DNA of 64,000 nucleotides from Escherichia coli (GCF_041886205.1 NZ_CP169030.1); one strand, 5' to 3'. Shown: positions 3 to 48,517, counted from the stretch's first letter. Notes: generated by a model not told the origin, from the letters alone. Made by a program: numbers and translations.

Positions 3-1004
3 GACTGGATCCCAGGTATCAGTGGACATAATGATGAATATCTGAATCTTTTTGAGCCCGTCAGTGAGGATTTTCGTCATATCCAGACGACCGGTAAACG
101 ACTCAGCAGCCTGACGCACTGGCGATATTATTTTGCCTTCTCCTCACCACAGAATGTTCTGCCACCTGAATTCTTCAGACAGCTTTTTGAACAGGCTGGC
201 GTATCGGAAAAACAGCAGCAGCTTTCTGAATTGCTGCTCTCAAAAATCAACAGTGTGGGCAGTCTGTCCGGAACCTGGTTTGAACATATACTGAGCAGAC
301 TGACTCCAGGCCTGATAAGAGAACGTAATTTCGAAGAGTGCGCAGGACTGGTTCATTTTTTCTTCGATCACACCGATGAGGTGAGCACTCGCTTCAGTAT
401 CCGTAACCCATGGTTTTCCCTGCGTGAAATGGCCATTAATGAGGTTGTACGGCATCTGCTGAAGCATATGCAGGATATTGATGAGACCAGAACGATCACG
501 CTTATGGAAAAACTGATCGTTACGGGTGCTTCGCCGTTCTGGATAGCCGATTTTATGCGGGATCTTATCTGGGAACATGGACTTGCTCAGAATGCAGTAC
601 CTTCGCCTTCAGACGCTCTTTTCAGTCGCGATATTACGGAACGGTTGCGTGACAGGTTTGCGGAACGTATGAATCAACCAGAACTTCAGCAACAGCTTCT
701 CCTGCGCAAGTCTCTTCTCGGGTATCTCTACGCCTGGAGAGACATGAGTTCAGGTGAAACCGTGAAGCAATGGGTCAGAGAAGTTACTACCACTGATGAA
801 GGCCTTGTTAACCTGTTGATACGATTACAGACCAGTGTCTTCAGCTCCCACCGAGGGGCATATCGCCGGATTGCGCGTGACCAGGTCAGTCCGTTCTTTG
901 ATGACTGGCCAGCAGTCGAAGAGAAGTTGAAGGTTATGCTGTCCGGCAACGAGCTGACTCCGGAGCAGGAAGCGCTCAAAACAGCGCTGGAAAATGACGA
1001 CTGA
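3..1004 (+). CDS. Hypothetical protein, 5'-truncated by window start (reading frame open from position 3; ORF track start at 231 is only the first in-frame Met)
   Basis: Frame stays open without stops from nt 3 to stop at 1004; no recognisable catalytic motif; convergent with TIR-like gene and separated by a hairpin terminator. Confidence 0.4.
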   Translation, partial: DWIPGISGHNDEYLNLFEPVSEDFRHIQTTGKRLSSLTHWRYYFAFSSPQNVLPPEFFRQLFEQAGVSEKQQQLSELLLSKINSVGSLSGTWFEHILSRLTPGLIRERNFEECAGLVHFFFDHTDEVSTRFSIRNPWFSLREMAINEVVRHLLKHMQDIDETRTITLMEKLIVTGASPFWIADFMRDLIWEHGLAQNAVPSPSDALFSRDITERLRDRFAERMNQPELQQQLLLRKSLLGYLYAWRDMSSGETVKQWVREVTTTDEGLVNLLIRLQTSVFSSHRGAYRRIARDQVSPFFDDWPAVEEKLKVMLSGNELTPEQEALKTALENDD

Positions 1005-1053: not shown

Positions 1054-1953
1054 TCAGGCGCTTAATGCTTTATCCTTGTCAAAAGGAACACCGGCATACG
1101 CAAGCTCACTCAGCAGTTTGCGTTTCCATCCACCATGCTCATCAAGCTCGGTATAGAGAACCCCGGCAAGATCTGAAGGGATTTCGATATCTCCCTTCCT
1201 GAGTACAAGTACTTTCCCGCGTCCAAGCTTCCCGGCGAAATATCCGAGCTCATACAGGACATTCTGGCGTGCGCGGAGACGTGTGCTTTCAGATGCCAGA
1301 GCACTGCCGCTATCGTCGGGCGTCATCAGCACGATGGCAAAACTGACATCCCCTGACTCTGCTTCAAATTTCTCGATAATCGTCCTGGAGCCGTCAGGAC
1401 GTTCTGAAAGAATGATTTCCTCAAGACCTATCCGGGATATAAAACGGGCAACAGACTGAAGGGCATCATTATCATGGCCATGAACAATAAAAATTTTTCG
1501 GGAAACCGGCCGAAACACTGCAGGCTCAGGATCGTGTTGGTTTTCCACATACAACTGGTAATCGCGCACGAACGGGGCAACTAATGACGACGTGAATTTT
1601 CGAATGGATTCAATAATGTTTCGATCATAGAAAAATGTATGACAGAAATTAAAGGAAAAATTGTTATCGTCTGCCATTTTCTCGATCAGCAGCAACTTCA
1701 GGCCCAAAATATCAGCGGGCTCATCAGGCCACTGTAGAACAGCGGAACCAGCCATGCTGGATTCAGTATCTTCACTCCTGGCCAGAAAGGTATCAAGTTC
1801 AACATTGCGGGTCAGATGTGCATTAACTGACTGCAGATTCTCTGAGTTCAAGAGCCGGGCCAATTGCTTAAGAGGTTGCTGATAGTTCTGAACGTCAGCG
1901 CGCTGAAGGTCGAATACGCAATTTTTAAGTGACTGAAAGATATCAATTGCCAT
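1054..1953 (-). CDS. TIR-like domain protein (COG4271/PF10137-type C-terminal domain) with uncharacterised N-terminal domain; candidate anti-phage effector
   Basis: C-terminal half contains KIFIVHGHD ... AIVLMTPDD ... RARQNVLYELGYFAGKLGRGKVLVL, matching the hallmark motif pattern of bacterial TIR-like nucleotide-binding domains seen in CBASS/Pycsar/Thoeris-type effectors; ~45 percent GC. Confidence 0.5.
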   Translation of the reverse strand: MAIDIFQSLKNCVFDLQRADVQNYQQPLKQLARLLNSENLQSVNAHLTRNVELDTFLARSEDTESSMAGSAVLQWPDEPADILGLKLLLIEKMADDNNFSFNFCHTFFYDRNIIESIRKFTSSLVAPFVRDYQLYVENQHDPEPAVFRPVSRKIFIVHGHDNDALQSVARFISRIGLEEIILSERPDGSRTIIEKFEAESGDVSFAIVLMTPDDSGSALASESTRLRARQNVLYELGYFAGKLGRGKVLVLRKGDIEIPSDLAGVLYTELDEHGGWKRKLLSELAYAGVPFDKDKALSA

Positions 1954-2381: not shown

Positions 2382-2512
2382 AGATATGCTAAACATATGC
2401 CTGGCATCTACATATGCTACCGCTATACATATGCCACACATCTGCCTATACTAAACATATGCACACACCCGGTGCTTTGAATATTCCGGATATGTTTCAC
2501 ATATCCATATGC
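2382..2512. promoter_or_regulatory. vapBC promoter/operator region with at least five ACATATGC repeats
   Basis: Motif (A)CATATGC occurs at about 2393, 2411, 2427, 2455 and 2505 directly upstream of the vapB start codon; CATATG is palindromic. Confidence 0.4.
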
Positions 2513-2528
2513 TCGGGAGAGAAAAAAC

Positions 2529-2759
2529 ATGAGAACCGTATCGATATTTAAAAATGGCAACAACCGCGCCATCCGTCTGCCTCGTGATCTGGATTTTGAG
2601 GGGGTGAGCGAGCTCGAGATCGTCCGGGAAGGGGACAGCATCATCCTGCGCCCCGTCCGGCCAACCTGGGGATCATTCCTAGAGTACGAAAAAGCCGATC
2701 CAGATTTTATGGCGGAGCGCGAGGATGTTGTCAGCGACGAAGGGCGATTTAACCTGTGA
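2529..2759 (+). CDS. vapB: VapB/VagC-type antitoxin (AbrB/SpoVT fold)
   Basis: 76 aa, N-terminal SpoVT/AbrB-like motif (RAIRLPRDL), stop overlaps start of PIN toxin gene. Confidence 0.8.
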   Translation: MRTVSIFKNGNNRAIRLPRDLDFEGVSELEIVREGDSIILRPVRPTWGSFLEYEKADPDFMAEREDVVSDEGRFNL

Positions 2760-3172
2760 ACAAGACTTATATGCTTGATACCTGTATCTGCTCGTTCATC
2801 ATGCGTGAACAGCCAGAAGCCGTCCTGAAGCGTCTGGAGCAGGCGGTGCTACGCGGCCACCGTATAGTGGTCTCGGCCATCACCTACTCTGAAATGCGCT
2901 TCGGGGCTACCGGCCCAAAGGCCTCACCACGTCACGTCCAACTGGTCGATGAATTCTGCGCCCGCCTCGATGCCATCCTGCCCTGGGATCGCGCCGCAGT
3001 AGACGCCACCACGAAGATTAAAGTGGCACTGCGGCTGGCCGGGACGCCGATCGGCCCGAACGACACGGCGATTGCCGGGCACGCCATCGCCGCCGGGGCG
3101 ATACTGGTAACGAATAATACAAGAGAATTTGAGCGAGTGCCTGACCTGGTGCTGGAAGACTGGGTGAAGTAA
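2756..3172 (+). CDS. vapC: VapC/VagD PIN-domain toxin
   Basis: 138 aa; MLDTCICSF N-terminus and C-terminal VTNNTREFERV motif typical of plasmid VapC/VagD PIN nucleases. Confidence 0.85.
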   Translation: MNKTYMLDTCICSFIMREQPEAVLKRLEQAVLRGHRIVVSAITYSEMRFGATGPKASPRHVQLVDEFCARLDAILPWDRAAVDATTKIKVALRLAGTPIGPNDTAIAGHAIAAGAILVTNNTREFERVPDLVLEDWVK

Positions 3173-3209
3173 GACACTCTTTTCAAAGTCAGGAGATAAG
3201 GGCACCAAG

Positions 3210-3235
3210 AAACAGCCCGTATACGGGCTGTTTTA
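3210..3235. terminator. Bidirectional terminator hairpin (AAACAGCCCG-TATA-CGGGCTGTTTT)
   Basis: Perfect inverted repeat flanked by A-run and T-run between convergent vapC and the RloC-like gene. Confidence 0.5.
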
Positions 3236-3333
3236 ACAGATATCTACAGTAAGCGGTCCTAAACTGTAGGGTATCTTCGAAGATCAGACTATCAGGGAGC
3301 TAAAGCCTATCTTCCGGCGGCAAAAACAGTGGC

Positions 3334-5472
3334 TCAAGCGATACGGGCAACCGAGCTCTGGTTTGCTGCCGGTGGCAGGGCGATGAGCTTGTCACATTCC
3401 ATAATCACGTACTCCGGGATGAGATCGAATCTGGACGGATCTAGTTGACAGATGAACTCATTTTCAATGTGGTACGTTTCGTTAACGAATTTTCGTATTA
3501 CCGGATGGTCCTGATCCAGTTCCAGTAAACGGAATACCTGCAGTTTTTCATAGCCGTTACGACAGCGACGGTACAGGTTTTTTATTTCATCTGGGCTGCT
3601 GACGAGAGCCTGAAGTCGCGGGTAATCAAAACTGTCCACATACTCCCGGATATCCCGCAAGGCCTGCTGAATTTTCTCAGGAGCCATTTTGGGATAGCCC
3701 GAGCCCGCAGCGGCAGGCTCGCGATAATCCAGCGGGACGACGCGTCGATGGAATAGATTGGATAGAAGCTGATAAGCATCACCACGTTCGTCAACGATTT
3801 CAAAGTAGCGACGAAGATAGATGAGCTTAATGATCTCCTCACAGTCTGCTGACGCGGTGATGGATTTGCAGATCTGCATGAATGTCATGATATCGCCGTC
3901 GTTAACAGGTAATTCTTCTATGACTCCAGCAGACAGGCGCAGGCAGGAGGCGGTCACCTGATTACTGAACAACCTTCTGACTGACTTCAGCGTGTCAATC
4001 ACAGGCTCCACGTCATGCGTCAGCATAAGTACAGTCCGGTTCTTCAGGCATTCACCACTTGCACGTCTGAACAGCATTTCAAGAATGGCAAACTTCTTGT
4101 TTTTATCAAAAGAAGATATGGGATCATCAAGGATAATCAGTCCCGGGTTTTTTGACAGGCATTCATACATGAATAACACAATCGCAAAGGCGTTCCGTTC
4201 TCCATAGCTGAGATGCTGGCTACCGCCGCTGACGTACCCGTCAAAATCTATGTGTCGTAGCCTGAGTTTTCTCTGCTCTCCCTCGCCGGCTATATCCACC
4301 CTGTATTTATAGCCTGCATAAGTGAGGAAATTATTGATGTTTGTTTTGTGCTGTGCGATCAGCCGGATCATGCTGTCCCGGTGCCGGTTAATTTTTCCCT
4401 GCAGCGGTCCGGCAAGGTTTATCAGGTCCATAAGGGCCGCGTTCAGTCTGTCGGTGATCCCCTGCATGAGTTCGGATTGCAGATCAGGGAAGAACTGCAG
4501 GTCAATCAACCTGGCAGTGAGCACCTCCCGAACGTTCTGCTGTTCCTGCAGGCTGAAAACATTCAGGCCTCTCAGCGCAGTGAGTTTCTCTGTCAGCGTA
4601 TCGGTCTGGCGTTTCAACGCCACTAGGTACTCGATATGTTCGGCTTCCGGACCGTTCTGAAGCATAGTAATGGCCAGAAGGCGTTCTCTGGCGCTCTCCG
4701 TCAGGTAATTACCGAGGTTTTCCACCAGTCTGATGATAGCGGTCAGGTTTTTAATGGTGGATTTATCGTATTCCTCTCTGACTTGGCGAATTTGTGCTTC
4801 CTTTCCCGTGATATCACCGGTACAGAACGGACAGCAGCCATCCGAAAGGGGCGAAAACTCGAGTCCCTTTGTCTGCCAGTCAATCCATTCCACGCGGCGT
4901 TCACTGCGGATGTAGGGTTGATAGTTCTCAAGACCAGCCGGAATGTGGTGTATTTTATTTCCGCCTGACAGACCTCTCATGCCGGTTGAAGAACGTGAAA
5001 TCCCGGAACTGGTTGATCTGAAAGCATTACTGAGTTCCTGTAGATGGTCTATCAGAGAGTTCAGCTCAGTGTGATCCGTGAAAACAGCCCGGATCTTTTG
5101 CGTCATTTCTTCTATTTCACGCTCTCTTTCCGCATGGGCTTGATTGCGGATAAGAATATTAAAGCTATCACTGATGAGCTCGTCCGGTTGGAACGTAAAC
5201 TGACTGACGTACTCCTCGTTGAAGCACATCACGTCCCCAATCCCGTCAGCACCGATGACAATGGGCCCGGTGCTATCGGGGTTTTCTCCGCGCAGCCGGA
5301 AGGGTATCAGTGCCTGTAGTCCCTGAATGTCGTCCCGCGCCGCACAGCTTATGGCCCGTGACAGCGTACTTTTTCCAGTACCATTTGGCGCAAACTTAAT
5401 GTTCAGTTTATCGGCAGTGAGGGTGATATGTGCTCGTACGATGTTATTGCAGTGGCGTATTTCAATGTCCAT
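3334..5472 (-). CDS. ABC-type ATPase with coiled-coil CxxC zinc hook and C-terminal domain; RloC/PrrC-like anticodon-nuclease candidate
   Basis: Walker A (FAPNGTGKST) at N-terminus, long predicted coiled-coil insert containing CPFC, Walker B/D-loop (LIILDDPISSFD) and H-loop (LMLTHD), then ~220-aa C-terminal domain with LRRYFE and H-containing motifs; architecture matches RloC. Confidence 0.5.
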   Translation of the reverse strand: MDIEIRHCNNIVRAHITLTADKLNIKFAPNGTGKSTLSRAISCAARDDIQGLQALIPFRLRGENPDSTGPIVIGADGIGDVMCFNEEYVSQFTFQPDELISDSFNILIRNQAHAEREREIEEMTQKIRAVFTDHTELNSLIDHLQELSNAFRSTSSGISRSSTGMRGLSGGNKIHHIPAGLENYQPYIRSERRVEWIDWQTKGLEFSPLSDGCCPFCTGDITGKEAQIRQVREEYDKSTIKNLTAIIRLVENLGNYLTESARERLLAITMLQNGPEAEHIEYLVALKRQTDTLTEKLTALRGLNVFSLQEQQNVREVLTARLIDLQFFPDLQSELMQGITDRLNAALMDLINLAGPLQGKINRHRDSMIRLIAQHKTNINNFLTYAGYKYRVDIAGEGEQRKLRLRHIDFDGYVSGGSQHLSYGERNAFAIVLFMYECLSKNPGLIILDDPISSFDKNKKFAILEMLFRRASGECLKNRTVLMLTHDVEPVIDTLKSVRRLFSNQVTASCLRLSAGVIEELPVNDGDIMTFMQICKSITASADCEEIIKLIYLRRYFEIVDERGDAYQLLSNLFHRRVVPLDYREPAAAGSGYPKMAPEKIQQALRDIREYVDSFDYPRLQALVSSPDEIKNLYRRCRNGYEKLQVFRLLELDQDHPVIRKFVNETYHIENEFICQLDPSRFDLIPEYVIMECDKLIALPPAANQSSVARIA

Positions 5473-39611: not shown

Positions 39612-40358
39612 TCACAGCGCCAGAACGCCCAGCACAGCCAGATGACAGGCATAGAACGTCGGGAAAAAGTCTCCGGGCCAGAAACGGGATAATAATTTCC
39701 CTGCACACGACACCAGACCAACGGTCAGCACCGTCATCACAAGGCCGGCTACAGCCGCCGCATCACTGGTGGCAAGGTTAAGCGCCGGAATCACGGCCAG
39801 CAGGCAAGCGACAAGCACCAGACGTTCCATTCTGTCTTCCGCCCGGTACAGCCGGTGGCTGACAGCCAGCATCAGCAGCCCGGCAATGCCGTAACTGGTG
39901 CCGGACAAAGGCCCCCACAGTGCCATCATGAGAATGGCCGCTGCAGTACGCCACCCACTGCGCGTTTCACACCATGTCAGCACCTGTGCCGCCACTGCAA
40001 AGGCAAACAGGATATTCCCCTCATACCAGGGAAAGCCGGCAAAGTAATACCAGAACTGGGAAAAAACTGCCCATCCCCACAGCCGGTTAATGGCCAGTTG
40101 CCGGATATGCGCATGACGGGACAGATTCAGCCCCCACACCAGGGCAAACAGCGGAAAGGCCCCGCGCCCGGCCAGAAACATCCACGACTGGTCCAGATGC
40201 AGAATACGGTTTGCATGGTCCAGAACCATCAGCACCAGTGCCACCGTTTTGATGATATCCCGCTGTCCGGGTGACCAGACCAGCAACGACTGCAACCAGG
40301 TATCGGTCCGGGCAACCAGTGAATCGTTACGTGTCGTGTTCGTGTTATCCGTTGTCAT
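39612..40358 (-). CDS. traX: TraX F-pilin N-acetylase
   Basis: 248-aa polytopic membrane protein starting MTTDNTNTTRNDSLVARTDTW. Confidence 0.85.
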   Translation of the reverse strand: MTTDNTNTTRNDSLVARTDTWLQSLLVWSPGQRDIIKTVALVLMVLDHANRILHLDQSWMFLAGRGAFPLFALVWGLNLSRHAHIRQLAINRLWGWAVFSQFWYYFAGFPWYEGNILFAFAVAAQVLTWCETRSGWRTAAAILMMALWGPLSGTSYGIAGLLMLAVSHRLYRAEDRMERLVLVACLLAVIPALNLATSDAAAVAGLVMTVLTVGLVSCAGKLLSRFWPGDFFPTFYACHLAVLGVLAL

Positions 40359-40377
40359 CAGCGTTTGTCTTCCTGTA

Positions 40378-43300
40378 TCAGTCTCCACCCAGGGTTTTCT
40401 CTTTCTGCAGGTCGCGGACCATATCCCGCTCCATCTGCTGAAGTCGCTCCTGCAGCAGATTTTCCCGGGCAATTTCCCTGACAGCTTCCCGCACCCGTTG
40501 AGGTTCACGCAGTACACCCTCCGGCAGCGCGGCTTCCCGTTCAGTTATGGCAGCCCGGTCACGCTCCTGCCCGGCAATCTCCCTGACAGCCTGCTCTGTT
40601 TTGCCATCCGGCAGGTCAGGTTTGTTCTCTGCCATTTTACGGACAATTTCATCTGCGCGGCGTTCCGTTTCACGACGGATGGCCTCTTCAGCCTGCCGCT
40701 GTGCCAGCACCTCTGCCGTGACCGGTTCGCCATTTCCGGCTCCCGGCCGGACACTGTTGTCCGGGATATCCCCCCACACGCGACCACCGGTGATGGCACC
40801 GGGATTCCACGGACGACCTTCACCGGCGATTCTCACCACCACACCGCTGTCAGGATTATCACGGGCAATCCGGACACCATCCTGCATATTATCAGCCAGC
40901 AGGCTCTCTCCGTTACGGCTGCCCTGCAGGGCCACGAACTGCGCATCCCCGCTGCCTTTCACCCGTCCTTCACCACTGAATCCCCGAAGTCCGTTTCCGT
41001 CATCCGTGGTCAGTGGGTTCAGCCAGATACCGGCGGACTTGCCGTTACGGTCAAAGGCCGGCAGGGCTACATACGGCTGCGGATATTTGCGCCCCGGTGC
41101 AATAAACCGTGCAGGACTGTCTCCCCCGGCCAGCCCTGCCTGACGGAGAACGGCACGACCAGCTGCCACGTCCCGCAGCTCCCGCGCCGTACTGAACAGC
41201 CGCTGCGCATTCATGACCTCCCGGTCAGCCCCCGGCTCCAGCACATCGTGAGCCGTTCCTTTCTGTACGGCTTTGCTGATGGCATCCGTCCAGCCCTGAC
41301 GGTTATCGGTGTACACCTGCACATGCTGCTTCATACGCGACAGGGCCACGTAGGCTGACTCAAAGCCGGCCATCAGTTTCCGGCTGCCTTCCGTACCTTC
41401 AAGCGCGATGGCAAAGGTTTCACTTGCCCCCTGCGCACCGTGAGCGGTGATGGCATAGGCCAGGTCAATATGTTGCTCTGCCCGCTCCTTGGCGGGGCGA
41501 ATCACCCGGGTCTGCTGTCCGCCCGACAGCGTGACACTGTCACCGGAAACCGCTGTCACCGTCCAGACGCTGTTGGCCACATAACCACGCTCCCGGTCAC
41601 TCTTCGTGAAGCGCATCCGGTCACCGGTTCCCACCCTGATGGTGTCCGGGGTGTACAGTGTGACACCTTCAGCCACCGCCTCCCGGGGAGAAATCAGCCG
41701 CGTGTTACCTTCCGCATCCTGCAGGGTTATCAGCCCGTCATCCTTACTGATACCGGCAATCCGGTGATACACATTATCCACCAGGACAAGTGCGTCCCGA
41801 TGTGTCTCCCAGGTGGAGAGACGACGCAGCTCCCCGTCACGTATATTCGCTGTGTTCAGGACAGACACCATGACCTGCTCTTTCCCCAGCTCACCGGCCT
41901 TTTCCCGTACATCATGAATCATGCTGTTCAGTACGCGCCGGTCCTCATTCAGGTGCGTGACAATCAGCGTCTGCTCCCGTGCTTCCGGTGTTCTGCCGGT
42001 ATAGTCGCGGACAATGGCTTCATACAGTGTCATGGGGACATCCGGAAAAGCCTCGCCTTTCAGCATCGCCTTCTGCTGCGCTTCTGCCAGTTTCGCTTCC
42101 TGGCTGTGACTGAACTCCGTCACGGAGTGCTCCGGTGCCCATGCGCCCTCCTGACGTGGCACCTGAGACGGTTTCACACTCTCAAGCCCGGACAGTGCCC
42201 TTTCCACATCCCGGTTAATCAGGCTGTATACCGCCTCCCGCAGTTCCGGCGTCTGACGCACAATCTCCTTCATGATGGCCACATCGGCAGCACTGCGCGT
42301 CTGCTGGAGACGGAAAGGCTGACCGGGCGCGATGGCCTGCAGCTGGTCCGTGTCACCACTGGCCACCGCCCTACCGCCACCGGCCGCAATCAGGGCGTAT
42401 GCCCGTGCCATGTCGGTATTGCCCACCATTGAGCTCTCATCGAGCAGGAACAGCGTGTTGCTGAAATCCGGCGTTTCTCCGCTGCGCTGCTGCAGCTGCG
42501 TGTCATGCAGAAAGGACGCCAGTGTCTGCGCATCCACGCCGGCGCTGCGCATCTCCCCGACCGCACGGTGTGTGGGACCCAGCCCCACGACTCGGGGACG
42601 CTCACTCTCCGGCAGCATGTTCACGGCTGACATCACCGCCCGGAACTGTGTGGTCTTACCCACACCGGCATAGCCCTGTACCACCGTGAAACGGTCGGAC
42701 GTTTCCAGTATCATGCGGGTGGCGGCACGCTGTCCTGATGTCAGTTTCTCCATGAGTTCGCCAGGTACTCTCTCCATCAGCGGCATGACCGCCTCCTTAC
42801 CTTCGAGAATATGGCGAAGAATGCTCTTTTCTGCCTCATACGACGCACGGGAAACCAGCAGACCTGTGCCATAGCCTTTTGCCACATCCACATACAGTAA
42901 ATCACCCCGTTTTATCTGCGCATTGATTTCCCCTCCCAGTTCAGTAAAACCGGTTCCTTCTGCAGCAAACGACTTTGCCTCTGTCAGCAGGTCCACCATG
43001 CTGAAGGCCAGTTTTTTACTTTCCACCACCGGAAGGGCAAGATGAATGGCCTGCTGTGCCGGCGTGTGAAGTGCGGACTTCTGATGACTGATAGCCGTTT
43101 CCAGCGATGTCTCACCGGCCCGCGTCTTTATCTGCTCAGAAACCACCGTAAAGGACGGATGGCGGGCAAGTTTTTCCGCAGTACGGGTTTCATCCAGTGA
43201 GGAATACAGCCGGACATCACGACCACTGCGGGCCAGACCGTTCAGGGTGGCATTGTCCATTGCCATCTGTGTGACGGAGGCAAAAACCGTCGCACTGTCG

Positions 43301-45648
43301 CTGACGGAATGCCCGGGCGTTTCCACCCAGCCGTTCTCCAGCTTCAGTGCCGTGAACGGTGAATCGCTCACAGGCAGGGTGGCCGGTTCAGCCCGTCCCG
43401 GCACAACAACCGTCATCGTGTCCTCACTGACGGACGACACCTGCAGGCGGTCACCGCCGGAGACGCGGAGTCCGGGAATTTTCCCTGTCACCCTCAGACG
43501 CTCGCCGTCTGCCACCGGCATTTTTTCCGGCCGGAACAGCGACCAGCTGCTGTCCAGAGAAGAAATACGCACCACCTGCGTTTCGCCCTGCGCATCCCGC
43601 AGGGTCAGGCTGTGACTCTGCGCCGTCACCCGGTCTATCACATAGCGGTCATGACTGCGTGTCTCCGGGTTCCACTGCTCCATCACCATCCCCGGGCGGT
43701 ACATATCCCGCAGATAACGACTCCGGCTGTCCAGCCAGACCGGTGACAGCGCGGTCATGGTCACCTCCGGATGTCCGAGTACGCCCTGTGTTTTCAGCTC
43801 ACTGCGAATGGTCTGAGTCAGCATGGCCTGTTCCCGTACTCCACTGACCTGCGCCACGCTCTCTTCTCCGGCTTTCACGCTGACCGCAAAATCTCCGGCC
43901 AGCCGGGCATAGCGGACATTACGGTCCGGTTCACTGATGATGGTTGCCGGTCGCTGTTCTCCCCCCTGCCAGCGATATGTGTTCACTCCGGCATCCTTCA
44001 TGGCCATCAGCGCACTGCCGGTACCGGTCCGCTGCCCGCTGTCGATTATCAGGACCTGTACGTTATGCCGTGCGGCACCGTCCAGCAGAGTTAACGTCTC
44101 TTTCAGGGAGAGTTTTTCGCCCTGGTCGACGATAACGGTACTGCCCGGCGTGAAGGTCATGCCCTCCAGCAGCTGACGCCGCCCGGTTATCAGCTCACCG
44201 GACAGACGCTCATCCTGCTTCATGTTCATCTGCGAGCGACGGTCAGCAGCGATAATCTGCACCTCCCGCCCCTGCTCCCGGGCCATCATGACCAGTTCAG
44301 CCACCCGCTCACGCTGCCCGGCTGCACCGCCCTGCCCGGACACAATGGCCAGCGACGGGCGATCCTGTGCCAGCACGCTGACGGCATCGCTGTAACCGGC
44401 CGTCCGGGGAACACTTTTCTCCGGATGTACGGTCACCCGGTTCTGTTTCATGATGTCACGACTGAGTGCCCGGACTGACAGCTCATCGAGCACATGAATC
44501 CCGGACGTGAACAGCCCCTTCTCACGGTCGAGGGGGATAAGCTGCTCACGGCTGATGGCCTCATCGATACCGGCGCGTGCCCGTTCAATCACACCATTTT
44601 CCGGCGGCAGTATGCCGACCGTTCTGGCCAGTACGTCCGTGTACGTGAACTGCACTTTTCGTTCACTTAATCCGGCAATCGCCTGTGTCACCGCCTGCTG
44701 CACATCCGGCCCGTCCTGTGAAGCAGGCCCGGGCGTCAGCGTGCGGAGATCCGCACGCTGATCCGCCGCGTCACGATATGCCCGGATGTCGAACCCGGTT
44801 TCCTTCAGCGTCTGCATCCACTCGGCCATTTTGATCTCCGGATCGACATGCTGTTTGGATTTACGCGTATCCAGCGCCGCCACATCCCGGGATTTCAGCG
44901 AGGCGTCTTCCCCGACGGCCTCCCGGATAGTCTGTGAGCGTCCGGAAAAGGCCTCCACCGGTACACCCGGCATTTCCCACATACCGTGCTTACCAACCAC
45001 TTCAGTTTCATAGCCCAGCGCCTCAACCTGCTCTTTCAGTTTTTCCCGGTAGAGCCTGCCAAAGGCAATCTGATTAGCGTACACATTCTCAATGAACCCC
45101 GTTTTCCCCACTTTGTCACTGCTCAGTGTCTTCCATTCGCCATTATGCTGCGTGACATTAGCCACCACCGCATGCGTGTGTAACTGTGGTTCCTGATCGC
45201 GACTGGTGTCGTGGTTAAACAGTGCCATCACCAGATTACCGGTCAGCACCGTTTCTGACTGTCCGTCCGTCATCACCCGTGTGGAGGCCAGCGCCTCCAC
45301 CTGACGGACAGCAAAATCCACGGCCTGATTATGTGCATCAATCAGGCGCTTATCGCCACCTAACATGGCCATCATGGAGACACTTTTGGGGGCGGAGAAG
45401 GTCAGATCGTAGCCGGGACGATGCCTGTTACTGCCATCCTGCATGCGGCTTAGATCCGCTCCGTCCGGCAGCCTGCCCTCCAGAAGACGGGTAAAAACAT
45501 CCTTATCGACACTGCCCTGCAGCCCCAGCTGTTCAGCCCCCCTGCCGGCCCAGCGTTCTCCCATGCTGCCCAGCACATAGTAATTATCCTTGTCGGTATA
45601 ATAGTTCCCGGCACTTCCGGCCGATCTGACCTGCGCAATACTCATCAT
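40378..45648 (-). CDS. traI: TraI relaxase/helicase (1756 aa)
   Basis: N-terminal relaxase domain, two helicase Walker A motifs (GYAGVGKT), starts MMSIAQVRSAGSAGNYY. Confidence 0.95.
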   Translation of the reverse strand: MMSIAQVRSAGSAGNYYTDKDNYYVLGSMGERWAGRGAEQLGLQGSVDKDVFTRLLEGRLPDGADLSRMQDGSNRHRPGYDLTFSAPKSVSMMAMLGGDKRLIDAHNQAVDFAVRQVEALASTRVMTDGQSETVLTGNLVMALFNHDTSRDQEPQLHTHAVVANVTQHNGEWKTLSSDKVGKTGFIENVYANQIAFGRLYREKLKEQVEALGYETEVVGKHGMWEMPGVPVEAFSGRSQTIREAVGEDASLKSRDVAALDTRKSKQHVDPEIKMAEWMQTLKETGFDIRAYRDAADQRADLRTLTPGPASQDGPDVQQAVTQAIAGLSERKVQFTYTDVLARTVGILPPENGVIERARAGIDEAISREQLIPLDREKGLFTSGIHVLDELSVRALSRDIMKQNRVTVHPEKSVPRTAGYSDAVSVLAQDRPSLAIVSGQGGAAGQRERVAELVMMAREQGREVQIIAADRRSQMNMKQDERLSGELITGRRQLLEGMTFTPGSTVIVDQGEKLSLKETLTLLDGAARHNVQVLIIDSGQRTGTGSALMAMKDAGVNTYRWQGGEQRPATIISEPDRNVRYARLAGDFAVSVKAGEESVAQVSGVREQAMLTQTIRSELKTQGVLGHPEVTMTALSPVWLDSRSRYLRDMYRPGMVMEQWNPETRSHDRYVIDRVTAQSHSLTLRDAQGETQVVRISSLDSSWSLFRPEKMPVADGERLRVTGKIPGLRVSGGDRLQVSSVSEDTMTVVVPGRAEPATLPVSDSPFTALKLENGWVETPGHSVSDSATVFASVTQMAMDNATLNGLARSGRDVRLYSSLDETRTAEKLARHPSFTVVSEQIKTRAGETSLETAISHQKSALHTPAQQAIHLALPVVESKKLAFSMVDLLTEAKSFAAEGTGFTELGGEINAQIKRGDLLYVDVAKGYGTGLLVSRASYEAEKSILRHILEGKEAVMPLMERVPGELMEKLTSGQRAATRMILETSDRFTVVQGYAGVGKTTQFRAVMSAVNMLPESERPRVVGLGPTHRAVGEMRSAGVDAQTLASFLHDTQLQQRSGETPDFSNTLFLLDESSMVGNTDMARAYALIAAGGGRAVASGDTDQLQAIAPGQPFRLQQTRSAADVAIMKEIVRQTPELREAVYSLINRDVERALSGLESVKPSQVPRQEGAWAPEHSVTEFSHSQEAKLAEAQQKAMLKGEAFPDVPMTLYEAIVRDYTGRTPEAREQTLIVTHLNEDRRVLNSMIHDVREKAGELGKEQVMVSVLNTANIRDGELRRLSTWETHRDALVLVDNVYHRIAGISKDDGLITLQDAEGNTRLISPREAVAEGVTLYTPDTIRVGTGDRMRFTKSDRERGYVANSVWTVTAVSGDSVTLSGGQQTRVIRPAKERAEQHIDLAYAITAHGAQGASETFAIALEGTEGSRKLMAGFESAYVALSRMKQHVQVYTDNRQGWTDAISKAVQKGTAHDVLEPGADREVMNAQRLFSTARELRDVAAGRAVLRQAGLAGGDSPARFIAPGRKYPQPYVALPAFDRNGKSAGIWLNPLTTDDGNGLRGFSGEGRVKGSGDAQFVALQGSRNGESLLADNMQDGVRIARDNPDSGVVVRIAGEGRPWNPGAITGGRVWGDIPDNSVRPGAGNGEPVTAEVLAQRQAEEAIRRETERRADEIVRKMAENKPDLPDGKTEQAVREIAGQERDRAAITEREAALPEGVLREPQRVREAVREIARENLLQERLQQMERDMVRDLQKEKTLGGD

Positions 45649-45729
45649 AAACGTATATCCCTTTGACATATCCCGGCATCAATCCCACAATGGATATACA
45701 CAAGACATATCCACATAAGGAGGCAAATA

Positions 45730-45957
45730 ATGGAAACCACCGTATTTCTCAGCAACCGCAGCCAGGCGGTCAGACTGCCAAAAGCGGTTGCATTGCCGGA
45801 AAACGTAAAACGCGTTGAAGTGATTGCTGTCGGACGAACCCGAATCATTACGCCTGCCGGAGAGACATGGGACGAATGGTTCGACGGAAACAGTGTCAGC
45901 GCTGATTTTATGGATAACAGGGAACAGCCTGGTATGCAGGAAAGGGAGTCATTCTGA
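45730..45957 (+). CDS. vapB: VapB-type antitoxin (second vapBC module)
   Basis: 75 aa SpoVT/AbrB-like (VFLSNRSQAVRLPKAV), stop overlaps vapC start. Confidence 0.75.
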   Translation: METTVFLSNRSQAVRLPKAVALPENVKRVEVIAVGRTRIITPAGETWDEWFDGNSVSADFMDNREQPGMQERESF

Positions 45958-46355
45958 TGCTGAAGTTTATGCTCGATACCAACATCTGCATTTTTACGAT
46001 AAAGAACAAACCCGCCAGTGTCAGGGAACGTTTTAACCTGAACCAGGGGAGAATGTGCATCAGTTCGGTCACTCTGATGGAGGTGATATATGGTGCAGAA
46101 AAAAGCCAGATGCCTGAACGTAATCTCGCTGTGATCGAGGGATTTGTTTCCCGCATTGACGTTCTGGATTACGACGCTGCTGCTGCCACACACACCGGCC
46201 AGATAAGAGCAGAACTTGCCCTTCAGGGACGCCCTGTCGGGCCATTTGATCAAATGATCGCAGGTCATGCCCGCAGTCGGGGACTGATTATTGTGACTAA
46301 TAACACCCGGGAATTTGAACGTGTGGGCGGCCTGAGAATTGAAGACTGGAGTTGA
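45957..46355 (+). CDS. vapC: VapC PIN-domain toxin (second vapBC module)
   Basis: 132 aa MLKFMLDTNICIF ... VTNNTREFERV. Confidence 0.8.
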   Translation: MLKFMLDTNICIFTIKNKPASVRERFNLNQGRMCISSVTLMEVIYGAEKSQMPERNLAVIEGFVSRIDVLDYDAAAATHTGQIRAELALQGRPVGPFDQMIAGHARSRGLIIVTNNTREFERVGGLRIEDWS

Positions 46356-46363
46356 CCTGTTCA

Positions 46364-48517
46364 TCAGAAATCATCTCCCGGCTCAACATCCTCCCCGCGC
46401 TCCCGGTGCACATTAATGTTCACCTCTTCACGACGCTGCATCTGCTGCTGGATGTCCGGATGATTTTCCTGTTGCCATGCCTCATAAGCGGCCATATCCA
46501 CCACTTCACCGGATTCACTGATCCCGGGTGGCAGTTGCTGTTCCATCTCTTCTTCCGGTTTCATTTTCAGCTCCTGCTCGATCCCCCCTGCCGGAACATT
46601 CACACCTGAATCTGACTTCTTATCGTTGATGGCAGGAGACACCGGCTGTTGCGGCTGTTCAGCCTGAGTCACGTCTTCTCCGGAAACAACCTCCGGGACA
46701 TCCGGTTCGAAGAGGCTGGCCATCTGACGACCTTCTGCTTCCCTTGCGGCAAGTACGGCACTCAGACGGTTCTCCATTTCCGGGTTGATGTCACGCGGAA
46801 TAAACTCCGGAGCGACCTTCGGTCGTGTCTGATATTTCAGAGAGAGTTTTACTGCCGGATACGGTCCGGGCAGGGTGACATAACAGGTCAGATCCGGCAG
46901 AGACTGAATGTCGGAATAACTGACCAGCGTCTGGCGCTCCATATCCTTACCGGTCGATACCCCGTCACGTACCGGATCAGCACCGTAGGAATACTGCTCG
47001 CTGGCTTTCAGGTGCTCTTTCTCACCAATTTCACCGGCAGCGAACTCTGCAATCTTATGGCTGGGAGAACGGAAAAAGGCACGGGTGTTCATGACGTCAA
47101 ACAGCGAGGCAGCCGCTTTCTCACCGTAGATATCTTCCAGCTGGGCATAGGACTGGATACCAAACACATAACAGCCACCGAACTTACGGGCTTCCGGCAG
47201 GATCTCCACCAGGTCCGGCAGTTTGTGTAACGTGGGTAACTCATCACAGAAAAACCACACACGACGGTTACGGTTTTCTCCCATTGCCAGCAGACCACGA
47301 ATGGCAATGGACAGCCACATGGAGATCACCGGCTTCAGGGAGGCATGGGTGTCGGCATTCGACGAAATAAACAGCCAGCCGTTTTTCTGATCTTCCCGGA
47401 CACCACGCATCCAGTCACGGATGGTAAAAGGCTCACCGTTATGCTCAATCCCCTGCAGGTAACGGATGGCTTTCACGTAGTTGGTCAGCACAGCACGGAT
47501 GGAAATCGCCGTTTTCTCAATTTTCTCTTCCACCAGGTTGGCCGCCGGTGAATTACGCAGGTAGGTACGCAGTTTTTCAATTTTGATGGAAAGCAGTGTG
47601 TCCACCAGTTTGCTGTAGCTGCGGTTGGGGTCATTACGCATCAGATACGCCGCTTCCGCAAAAATGGTACGTCCTGAACCCTGCCAGAACGGGTCCTCTT
47701 TTGTACCCATCGGGATCAGAGTATTTGCGGTATTATCAAAATCCGGCTGTGTCAGGCACTCCTTCCACAAATCCCAGGCGGCACAGCGGGCATCCAGCGG
47801 ATTCAGGATTTTATCGATGGAGGGATCATAGTAACTTTTAACAAATTCCCCCGAACGGTCATAAATCACCACCATATCACCGCGCTGACGGGCGTAGTTG
47901 GCCAGACGACGGATAACTTCCGACTTACCGGCCCCGACCGTGCCGTGCAGACAGAAGTTCTGGATTTCGGAATCCCGGATAATCGGCAGGTCTCCAATCC
48001 GGATATCGGAGTCCTTGCCGTCTTTTTTCAGCATCCGGGCAACGTCTTTCGGATTGTCTGTCAGCTGACGACCACCTGTGACTTCATTTTCGCTCTGTTG
48101 TTTACCCTGACGCCCCAGAATCCAGGAGACAACAAAGAAGGTAATCAGGCAAATAACCAGTGCCACAACAGCAGCCAGCACGAAGGCGGACCATAACTGC
48201 TCACTGCACCAGATCATATATTTGTCATGCAGTACCTGAGCAGCGTTCATGCGGAAGGTTTTACCGTAATACTGGATCTCATAGACCGGCTGGGATTTGA
48301 TTAAATCCCGCATGCCTTCCAGCGTGGTACACCACCAGTAAATACAGCCGTTCACAAACGTCTGCCAGCTTATTTTTATCCATAAAACCAGACCAACGAG
48401 TATCCAGAAAAAAATAAACAGGCAGTAAAGCATGATATTGGCGATCTGGCTGAACATGCGGATACGCATGGACGCAATCTGACCGCCCTGGGTCATATCC
48501 TTTGCGTTAAAACTCAT
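46364..48517 (-). CDS. traD: TraD type IV coupling protein
   Basis: 717 aa with Walker A GTVGAGKS and Gln/Pro-rich C-terminal tail. Confidence 0.95.

Follow-up and report, generated by a model that had tools for sequence, protein, structure and literature searches.

Genes at the traD-traI junction

The window analysed here is a 64,000-nucleotide stretch of Escherichia coli DNA (GCF_041886205.1, NZ_CP169030.1). Its genes traD and traI are separated by a gap of exactly 715 bp (45649-46363), which an earlier note on this DNA had described as filled by a VapB/VapC pair on the strand opposite to tra. The ORF listing agrees with both the gene calls and the orientation:

45730-45957, plus strand: vapB, antitoxin of 75 amino acids with AbrB/SpoVT-MazE fold (ORF call, Pfam, NCBIfam; vapB in the F annotation)
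45957-46355, plus strand: vapC, toxin of 132 amino acids, predicted PIN-domain tRNA(fMet) endonuclease (ORF call, Pfam, NCBIfam)
46364-48517, minus strand: traD, type IV coupling protein, upstream neighbour in the tra operon (ORF call and F annotation)
40378-45648, minus strand: traI, relaxase/helicase, downstream neighbour (ORF call and F annotation)

The antitoxin gene lies directly 5' of the toxin gene, to which it is joined by an ATGA overlap. VapB barely exceeds the Pfam cut-off for MazE/AbrB (PF04014; 24.9 bits, cut-off 24.7) and scores 112 bits with the NCBIfam VapB family NF040493 (cut-off 60). VapC matches the PIN domain (PF01850; E=6e-21) and the tRNA(fMet)-specific VapC family NF010285 (286.9 bits, cut-off 143), and it keeps the catalytic acidic residues D7, E42, D98 and E119, all four of which are invariant in the family alignment. 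Neither of the two VapC proteins of the window matches any PADLOC model, and an Rfam scan of both strands of 45300-46700 gave a sub-threshold chance match only.

Over 1501 bp (45300-46800) the window is 100% identical to plasmid F (NC_002483.1), where the matching stretch is annotated traD, VapC-family toxin, vapB and traI; the module of F is thus the same in sequence, position and orientation. VapC equals chain A of PDB entry 9H6A, the crystallised F-plasmid VapC, in 132 of 132 residues (100%), and it is near-identical to the Shigella structures 3TND (278 bits) and 6SD6. There is very little doubt that the module is the type II toxin-antitoxin system vapBC of plasmid F, whose family goes by the names mvpAT or STBORF1/2 on Shigella pINV and vapBC2 on Salmonella pSLT. 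Its presence at traD-traI is a rediscovery: structure, initiator tRNA target, autoregulation, roles in maintenance and tolerance, and the position "within trbH" have all been published. The present analysis corrects the premise that F lacks vapBC at this junction, and it supplies the distribution of the module. The pair can no longer be regarded as an unusual filler relative to F, as had been suggested earlier, given the complete identity found when the comparison with F was run.

The start of traI was placed at 45648 (MMSIAQ...), since RefSeq and the plasmids that lack vapBC at this site put it there. The maximal ORF (40378-45669) opens seven codons further upstream; these additional codons (45648-45669, minus strand) read MSKGYTF-MMSIAQ and overlap, on the opposite strand, the -35 box and vapO half-sites. 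Long plus-strand ORFs of 369 and 330 amino acids run antisense to traI at 40249-42432, where GC is 60-64%, and are in all likelihood common shadow ORFs.

Published function of vapBC

VapC of identical and near-identical systems is a PIN endonuclease that cuts initiator tRNA(fMet) and thereby halts translation, and the corresponding VapB proteins neutralise their toxic partner and are degraded by Lon (PMC11796401, PMC5065971). According to the literature on these proteins, the C-terminal tail of VapB contacts VapC, its N-terminal AbrB-type domain contacts the operators, and the VapB4C4 hetero-octamer represses its own promoter. Degradation of VapB by Lon leads to killing or arrest of plasmid-free cells in near-identical systems (post-segregational killing). 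Hetero-octamer structures of F-plasmid VapBC are available (9H6A-9H6D; mBio 2024, PMC11796401), and vapB mutations in a chromosomally integrated F caused antibiotic tolerance and enhanced Lon-dependent plasmid stabilisation (PMC11796401). For Salmonella, Lobato-Marquez et al. (PMC5065971) described vapBC2 as an mvpAT homologue "encoded within the trbH gene" that stabilises pSLT 5.5-fold. A 2025 preprint (10.1101/2025.06.29.662172) reports autoregulation via inverted repeats and an antisense transcript, as-trbH, the function of which is given there as unknown.

Control region

Scans for direct and inverted repeats and for promoters delineated a control region between the start of traI and vapB:

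45650-45729, plus strand: vapBC control region (repeat/inverted-repeat scan and promoter scan)
45653-45660, plus strand: ATATCC-type half-site GTATATCC, predicted operator (repeat scan)
45663-45668, plus strand: -35 element TTGACA (promoter scan)
45666-45673, plus strand: ATATCC-type half-site ACATATCC, predicted operator (repeat scan)
45686-45691, plus strand: -10 element CACAAT (promoter scan)
45692-45699, plus strand: ATATCC-type half-site GGATATAC, predicted operator (repeat scan)
45705-45712, plus strand: second copy of half-site ACATATCC, predicted operator (repeat scan)
45717-45723, plus strand: Shine-Dalgarno sequence AAGGAGG, followed by the vapB ATG

The promoter scan gave 10 of 12 matches, with -35 and -10 enclosed by the four half-sites. 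Seven lineages, among them pSLT, Shigella, Serratia, Edwardsiella, Pantoea and Escherichia albertii, have kept the half-sites, TTGACA and GGAGG. The half-sites are predicted from the sequence to be autoregulatory operators, an assignment based on near-identical systems (10.1101/2025.06.29.662172). Only 5 nt separate the first vapO half-site from the start of traI on the opposite strand, and promoter and operators together occupy the interval 5-65 nt from that start, facing the tra transcript.

Anatomy and distribution of the cassette

The extent of the inserted DNA was determined by alignment with pSLT and with three F-like plasmids that have an empty site (pEC51-NDM5, p18044_2 and pRHB19-C13_3):

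45645-46360, no strand assigned: vapBC cassette of 716 bp (operators, promoter, vapB and vapC)

In the empty-site plasmids, whose traD 3' and traI 5' ends are 94-99% identical to the window, the cassette is missing and the TGA of traD overlaps the ATG of traI by one base (TTCTGATGATGAGT). We presume that R100 has the same empty-site arrangement. The junction reads TGATGATGAGT in the empty site, as compared with TGATG (at trbH) and TTATGATG (at traI) in F. The 716 bp of F and pSLT are inserted exactly at the one-base overlap of traD stop and traI start and face against the tra operon. Within the cassette GC content is lower and GC skew flips sign. Its edges are ambiguous by the 4 nt ATGA present at both junctions, which could reflect microhomology as well as a target-site duplication. 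A repeat search at the cassette ends found neither terminal inverted repeats nor long direct repeats. Insertion mediated by an IS element or transposon was considered and rejected, as the cassette has no terminal inverted repeats and no transposase ORF, and only the ATGA is repeated.

The distribution of the cassette was surveyed in PLSDB with the 1501-bp junction as query. Among 4223 matching records, not all of which cover both flanks, 1155 carry the cassette between traD and traI, that is, about a quarter of F-like plasmids; a query with the cassette only gave 1166 plasmid records. In those records inspected among the ones covering about 51-53% of the query, traD is directly adjacent to traI. 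The statement that the two genes are normally almost adjacent in F-like operons hence applies to roughly three quarters of the matching plasmids, but not to F, pSLT and pINV. Matches of empty-site plasmids are split in two within the 3' end of traD (around 46400-46800), and the spans of the records vary between about 780 and 970 bp, which indicates a length polymorphism in the region of the Gln/Pro-rich C-terminal tail of TraD.

The earlier note had counted it against its own reading if the insertion were a fixed feature of a well-described plasmid lineage with no effect on transfer. The first part is what was found: F, pSLT, Shigella pINV and plasmids of Serratia and Edwardsiella all have the cassette at the same junction, and it diverges together with its flanks. 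For the second part, the classification of trbH as non-essential (PMC5102898) and a 1993 study of trbH mutants give indirect support. Compared with F, the cassette is 86% identical at the nucleotide level in pSLT (N-terminus of TraI, 88-89% at the amino acid level), 74% in Serratia (TraI, 62.5%) and 72% in Edwardsiella (TraI, 70%). Such parallel divergence points to long residence of the cassette in the tra operon rather than to repeated recent capture. In pSLT, junction and boundaries are the same as in F, VapC is 95% identical, the 239-codon trbH frame described below is open, and the two plasmids differ by sequence divergence only (vapC dS 0.84, dN/dS 0.03). The Shigella flexneri pINV copy (MvpAT/VapBC of pMYSH6000 and pWR100; 3TND) and that of S. 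sonnei (6SD6) are about 97% identical at the nucleotide level. They have the same operators and the same antisense trbH ORF, and remnants of traD and traI still flank them. In contrast to F, the tra operon of pINV is decayed, an IS3 element adjoins the cassette, and the module lies outside any working operon; tRNA(fMet) cleavage and post-segregational killing are the functions ascribed to Shigella mvpAT in the literature. The window plasmid itself departs from F outside the module: the second vapBC pair and the candidate defence genes treated below match p1 of E. coli JNU and other plasmids, not F.

Relatives of the F module were also seen at other positions of F-type tra operons. In E. albertii (NZ_CP030785.2, 2501-3126 of locus L006) one is located, counter-oriented, between a DUF2726 gene and traD, and in Pantoea stewartii (pDSJ09, 2501-3126 of locus L092) another lies, likewise counter-oriented, with traF on one side and the trbB-side genes on the other. 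Entry into tra operons seems to be a recurrent event in this family. The Serratia proteamaculans plasmid (NZ_MT039190.1) has an incomplete second copy of the 5' end of traI between traD and the cassette (3185-3865 of locus L007, minus strand). It encodes 226 amino acids, is annotated as MobF-family relaxase and begins with MMSIG on the traD stop, which suggests a junction duplication in this lineage.

The trbH frame

On the tra strand, the cassette is spanned by a single ORF:

45645-46364, minus strand: trbH, 239 codons, antisense to vapBC, exact match to UniProt P19381 ("Protein TrbH [E. coli K-12]")

The ATG of trbH overlaps the stop codon of traD (TGATG), and its TGA overlaps the ATG of traI (ATGA). 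Its start is the site at which traI was formerly initiated, and the upstream GGAG is retained. As the frame is codon-aligned with vapC, it can be closed only by the vapC codons TTA, CTA or TCA. TrbH has no match in Pfam or NCBIfam and no PADLOC family. In comparisons between lineages dN/dS amounted to 1.0-3.2 in the trbH frame and to 0.03-0.12 in the vapC frame, and identity in the TrbH frame was 48-73% where that of VapC was 71-95%. The TrbH protein is not conserved; only the openness of the frame and its register are. The inverse arrangement, with vapBC as the shadow and trbH as the real gene, was ruled out by the dN/dS values and by the solved structures.

A trbH-like ORF is open in five tra-embedded lineages, i.e., F, pSLT, Serratia, Edwardsiella and Pantoea. 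The frame of S. proteamaculans (267 codons) begins 1 nt beyond the stop codon of the preceding ORF and ends on traI with ATGA. That of Edwardsiella anguillarum (272 codons) is linked to traD by TGATG and to traI by ATGA. In P. stewartii, where the cassette follows traF, the frame (241 codons) ends 61 nt before the next gene without overlap. The non-coding DNA that these cassettes have in excess comes in multiples of three (Edwardsiella, +69 and +30 nt; Serratia, +36 nt). The tra-embedded copy of E. albertii (78% identical) is closed by TCA at Ser37, and it abuts neither the DUF2726 gene nor traD. Short members of the "TrbH" cluster (96 and 67 amino acids) had been considered as truncations in Shigella; they stem from alternative starts at internal Met codons and are uninformative with respect to upstream stops.

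Between the open lineages, synonymous sites of vapC are saturated (pS 0.68-0.87), with the exception of the pair F-pSLT (dS 0.84), which implies that codons have been redrawn many times without an antisense stop arising. The probability that the frame of F is open by chance was 0.04-0.19 after synonymous randomisation. With the codon usage of flanking tra genes, values for the individual lineages were 0.19, 0.13, 0.19, 0.015 and 0.10 (product, 7e-6); with a codon usage pooled over the control set of vapC genes they were 0.02-0.09 (product, 5e-7). When F and pSLT were counted as one, the joint chance was about 4e-5. These products refer to a small sample of five open lineages and one closed lineage which share ancestry and are not fully independent. 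As controls, homologues outside tra operons were collected from 80 genome loci, 77 of which were usable, and the frame was scored over vapBC. It was open in three of the 77, each of which had a GC3 of 0.79 or more; among the 66 homologues whose GC3 did not exceed 0.75, not one was open (Fisher p=1e-5).

Transfer protein, shadow ORF or translational bridge

The name in UniProt (P19381), the annotation as conjugative transfer protein in some records and the maintenance of the ORF in several lineages would fit a functional 26-kDa transfer protein overprinted on vapBC. We consider this very improbable and close to refuted: the dN/dS values speak for a protein free of purifying selection, quite in contrast to VapC, identity in the TrbH frame is low against that of VapC, domain matches are lacking in Pfam and NCBIfam, and about three in four of the conjugative F-like plasmids that are similar in other respects lack the ORF. 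A second explanation is a mere shadow ORF whose openness and ends are accidents of insertion geometry and codon usage and have no consequence for traI. The missing domain matches and a dN/dS of at least 1 fit it, as does a published comparison that puts trbH with the non-essential tra genes and finds it, at 8% of MOBF12 plasmids, to be the one with the poorest conservation (PMC5102898). In addition, the frame is codon-aligned with vapC and has a chance of 0.04-0.19 of being open in F, and the start codon is simply the traI ATG left over at the junction. This explanation is possible though rather doubtful. It has to account for five tra-embedded lineages that are open despite saturated vapC synonymous sites, for the low joint chance even with F and pSLT merged, for the complete lack of open frames among the GC3-matched homologues outside tra, and for non-coding indels in the cassette that are all multiples of three; moreover, the sole closed copy, that of E. 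albertii, does not abut its neighbours.

We therefore lean, tentatively and at something close to an even call, towards a third explanation based on these sequence comparisons, namely that trbH is a selectively maintained translational bridge, and not a gene for a transfer protein or a frame left open by accident. A counter-oriented toxin-antitoxin cassette would have landed in the one-base overlap of traD and traI and split a translationally coupled pair. With the insertion, trbH would have inherited the original ribosome-binding site and ATG of traI, and it would terminate on the present traI ATG; since then, selection would have preserved the tra-strand frame across the cassette, in register and without stops. 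Ribosomes passing through trbH would keep traI coupled to traD and, by covering the antisense stretch of tra mRNA (about 0.7 kb), guard it against Rho-dependent polarity; translation of trbH might also help RNA polymerase to pass VapBC-bound operators. The TrbH protein itself would probably be irrelevant. Counting against such a bridge, an antisense frame is open in 4-19% of cases by codon usage alone in a single lineage, the lineages are related (F-pSLT, dS 0.84), and the Pantoea ORF falls short of the next gene by 61 nt. In addition, Maneewannakul and Ippen-Ihler are said to have found in 1993 that F transfer persisted when trbH carried a kan insertion, and trbH::kan mutants reportedly were transfer-proficient; a cassette promoter could mask polarity in such mutants. 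A literature search on Rho and polarity in the F tra operon returned nothing on the traD-traI junction.

The apparent selection for an open trbH frame is the sole part of this analysis that goes beyond the publications found, and it may be new. If the bridge exists, avoidance of TTA, CTA and TCA would constrain codon choice in vapBC from the opposite strand, and it would show that synonymous sites of a toxin-antitoxin system can be shaped by the strand that faces them. It would explain a tra gene that has been an orphan for 35 years, and it would provide a clean example of an operon that tolerates a counter-oriented cassette by means of a meaningless ORF kept open for ribosomes, which would be of moderate interest to the fields of conjugation, operon polarity and overlapping genes.

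A second vapBC module in the window

A second, paralogous vapBC pair had been noted at 2529-3172, and it is real:

2529-2759, plus strand: second vapB, 76 amino acids, distant paralogue (ORF call, Pfam, NCBIfam)
2756-3172, plus strand: second vapC, 138 amino acids, GTG start, distant paralogue (ORF call, Pfam, NCBIfam)

The two VapC proteins are 42% identical (E=2e-30) and the two VapB proteins 28% (E=5e-10). Both modules have the same two-gene architecture with PIN and AbrB-type domains. The two VapB proteins belong to the same NCBIfam VapB subfamily and have the motif TW...DFM..RE in the toxin-binding tail. Unlike the F module, the second pair sits outside the tra operon, between two PADLOC candidate defence genes. 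Its toxin is a PIN/VapC-family protein (PF01850, E=2.8e-15) that stays below the cut-offs of the tRNA(fMet)-specific models (NF010285, 104.6 versus 143 bits; NF047863, 122 versus 140 bits), which suggests that it may differ from the tRNA(fMet)-specific VapC in its target. The pair might correspond to VagCD of IncF plasmids, which is a guess; none of the source names of the database matches says VagD.

From the sequence VTNNTREFERV, which is indeed present in both VapC proteins, the earlier note had derived a hint of cross-neutralisation or cross-activation. This does not hold, as VTNNTREFERV, in which the catalytic Glu lies, is an active-site motif of the whole family, near-invariant in the alignment and specific to no pair; it was one of the two patterns used in our homologue search. 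That the two modules cross-neutralise or cross-activate each other, and that vapBC transcription against tra modulates traI, appears unlikely. The common VapB subfamily and tail motif would be compatible with cross-talk, and non-cognate VapB-VapC interactions are documented in Mycobacterium tuberculosis (PMC7517352, PMC7472061). A literature search for cross-talk in enteric VapBC pairs returned mycobacterial cases only. Against cross-talk stand the low identities, the family-wide nature of the shared motif and the possibly different target of the second toxin, and also the fact that IncFIB plasmids carry VagCD and MvpAT together and that curing vectors provide each antitoxin separately (PMC11537010). 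Judged by sequence, cross-neutralisation at 28% and 42% identity is compatible yet not expected. Modulation of traI could be envisaged from the closeness of the vapB promoter and operators to the traI start and from their orientation opposing the tra transcript, but plasmid F has the same arrangement; F is transfer-proficient and constitutively derepressed.

The genes next to the second vapBC pair (231-1004, plus strand; 1054-1953, minus strand; 3334-5472, minus strand) form an apparent small defence island. They encode a TIR-like protein (PADLOC candidate PDC-S35, E=2e-65), an AAA ATPase of 712 amino acids (PADLOC candidate PDC-S06, E=8e-286) and a P-loop/KAP NTPase that is cut by the start of the window.
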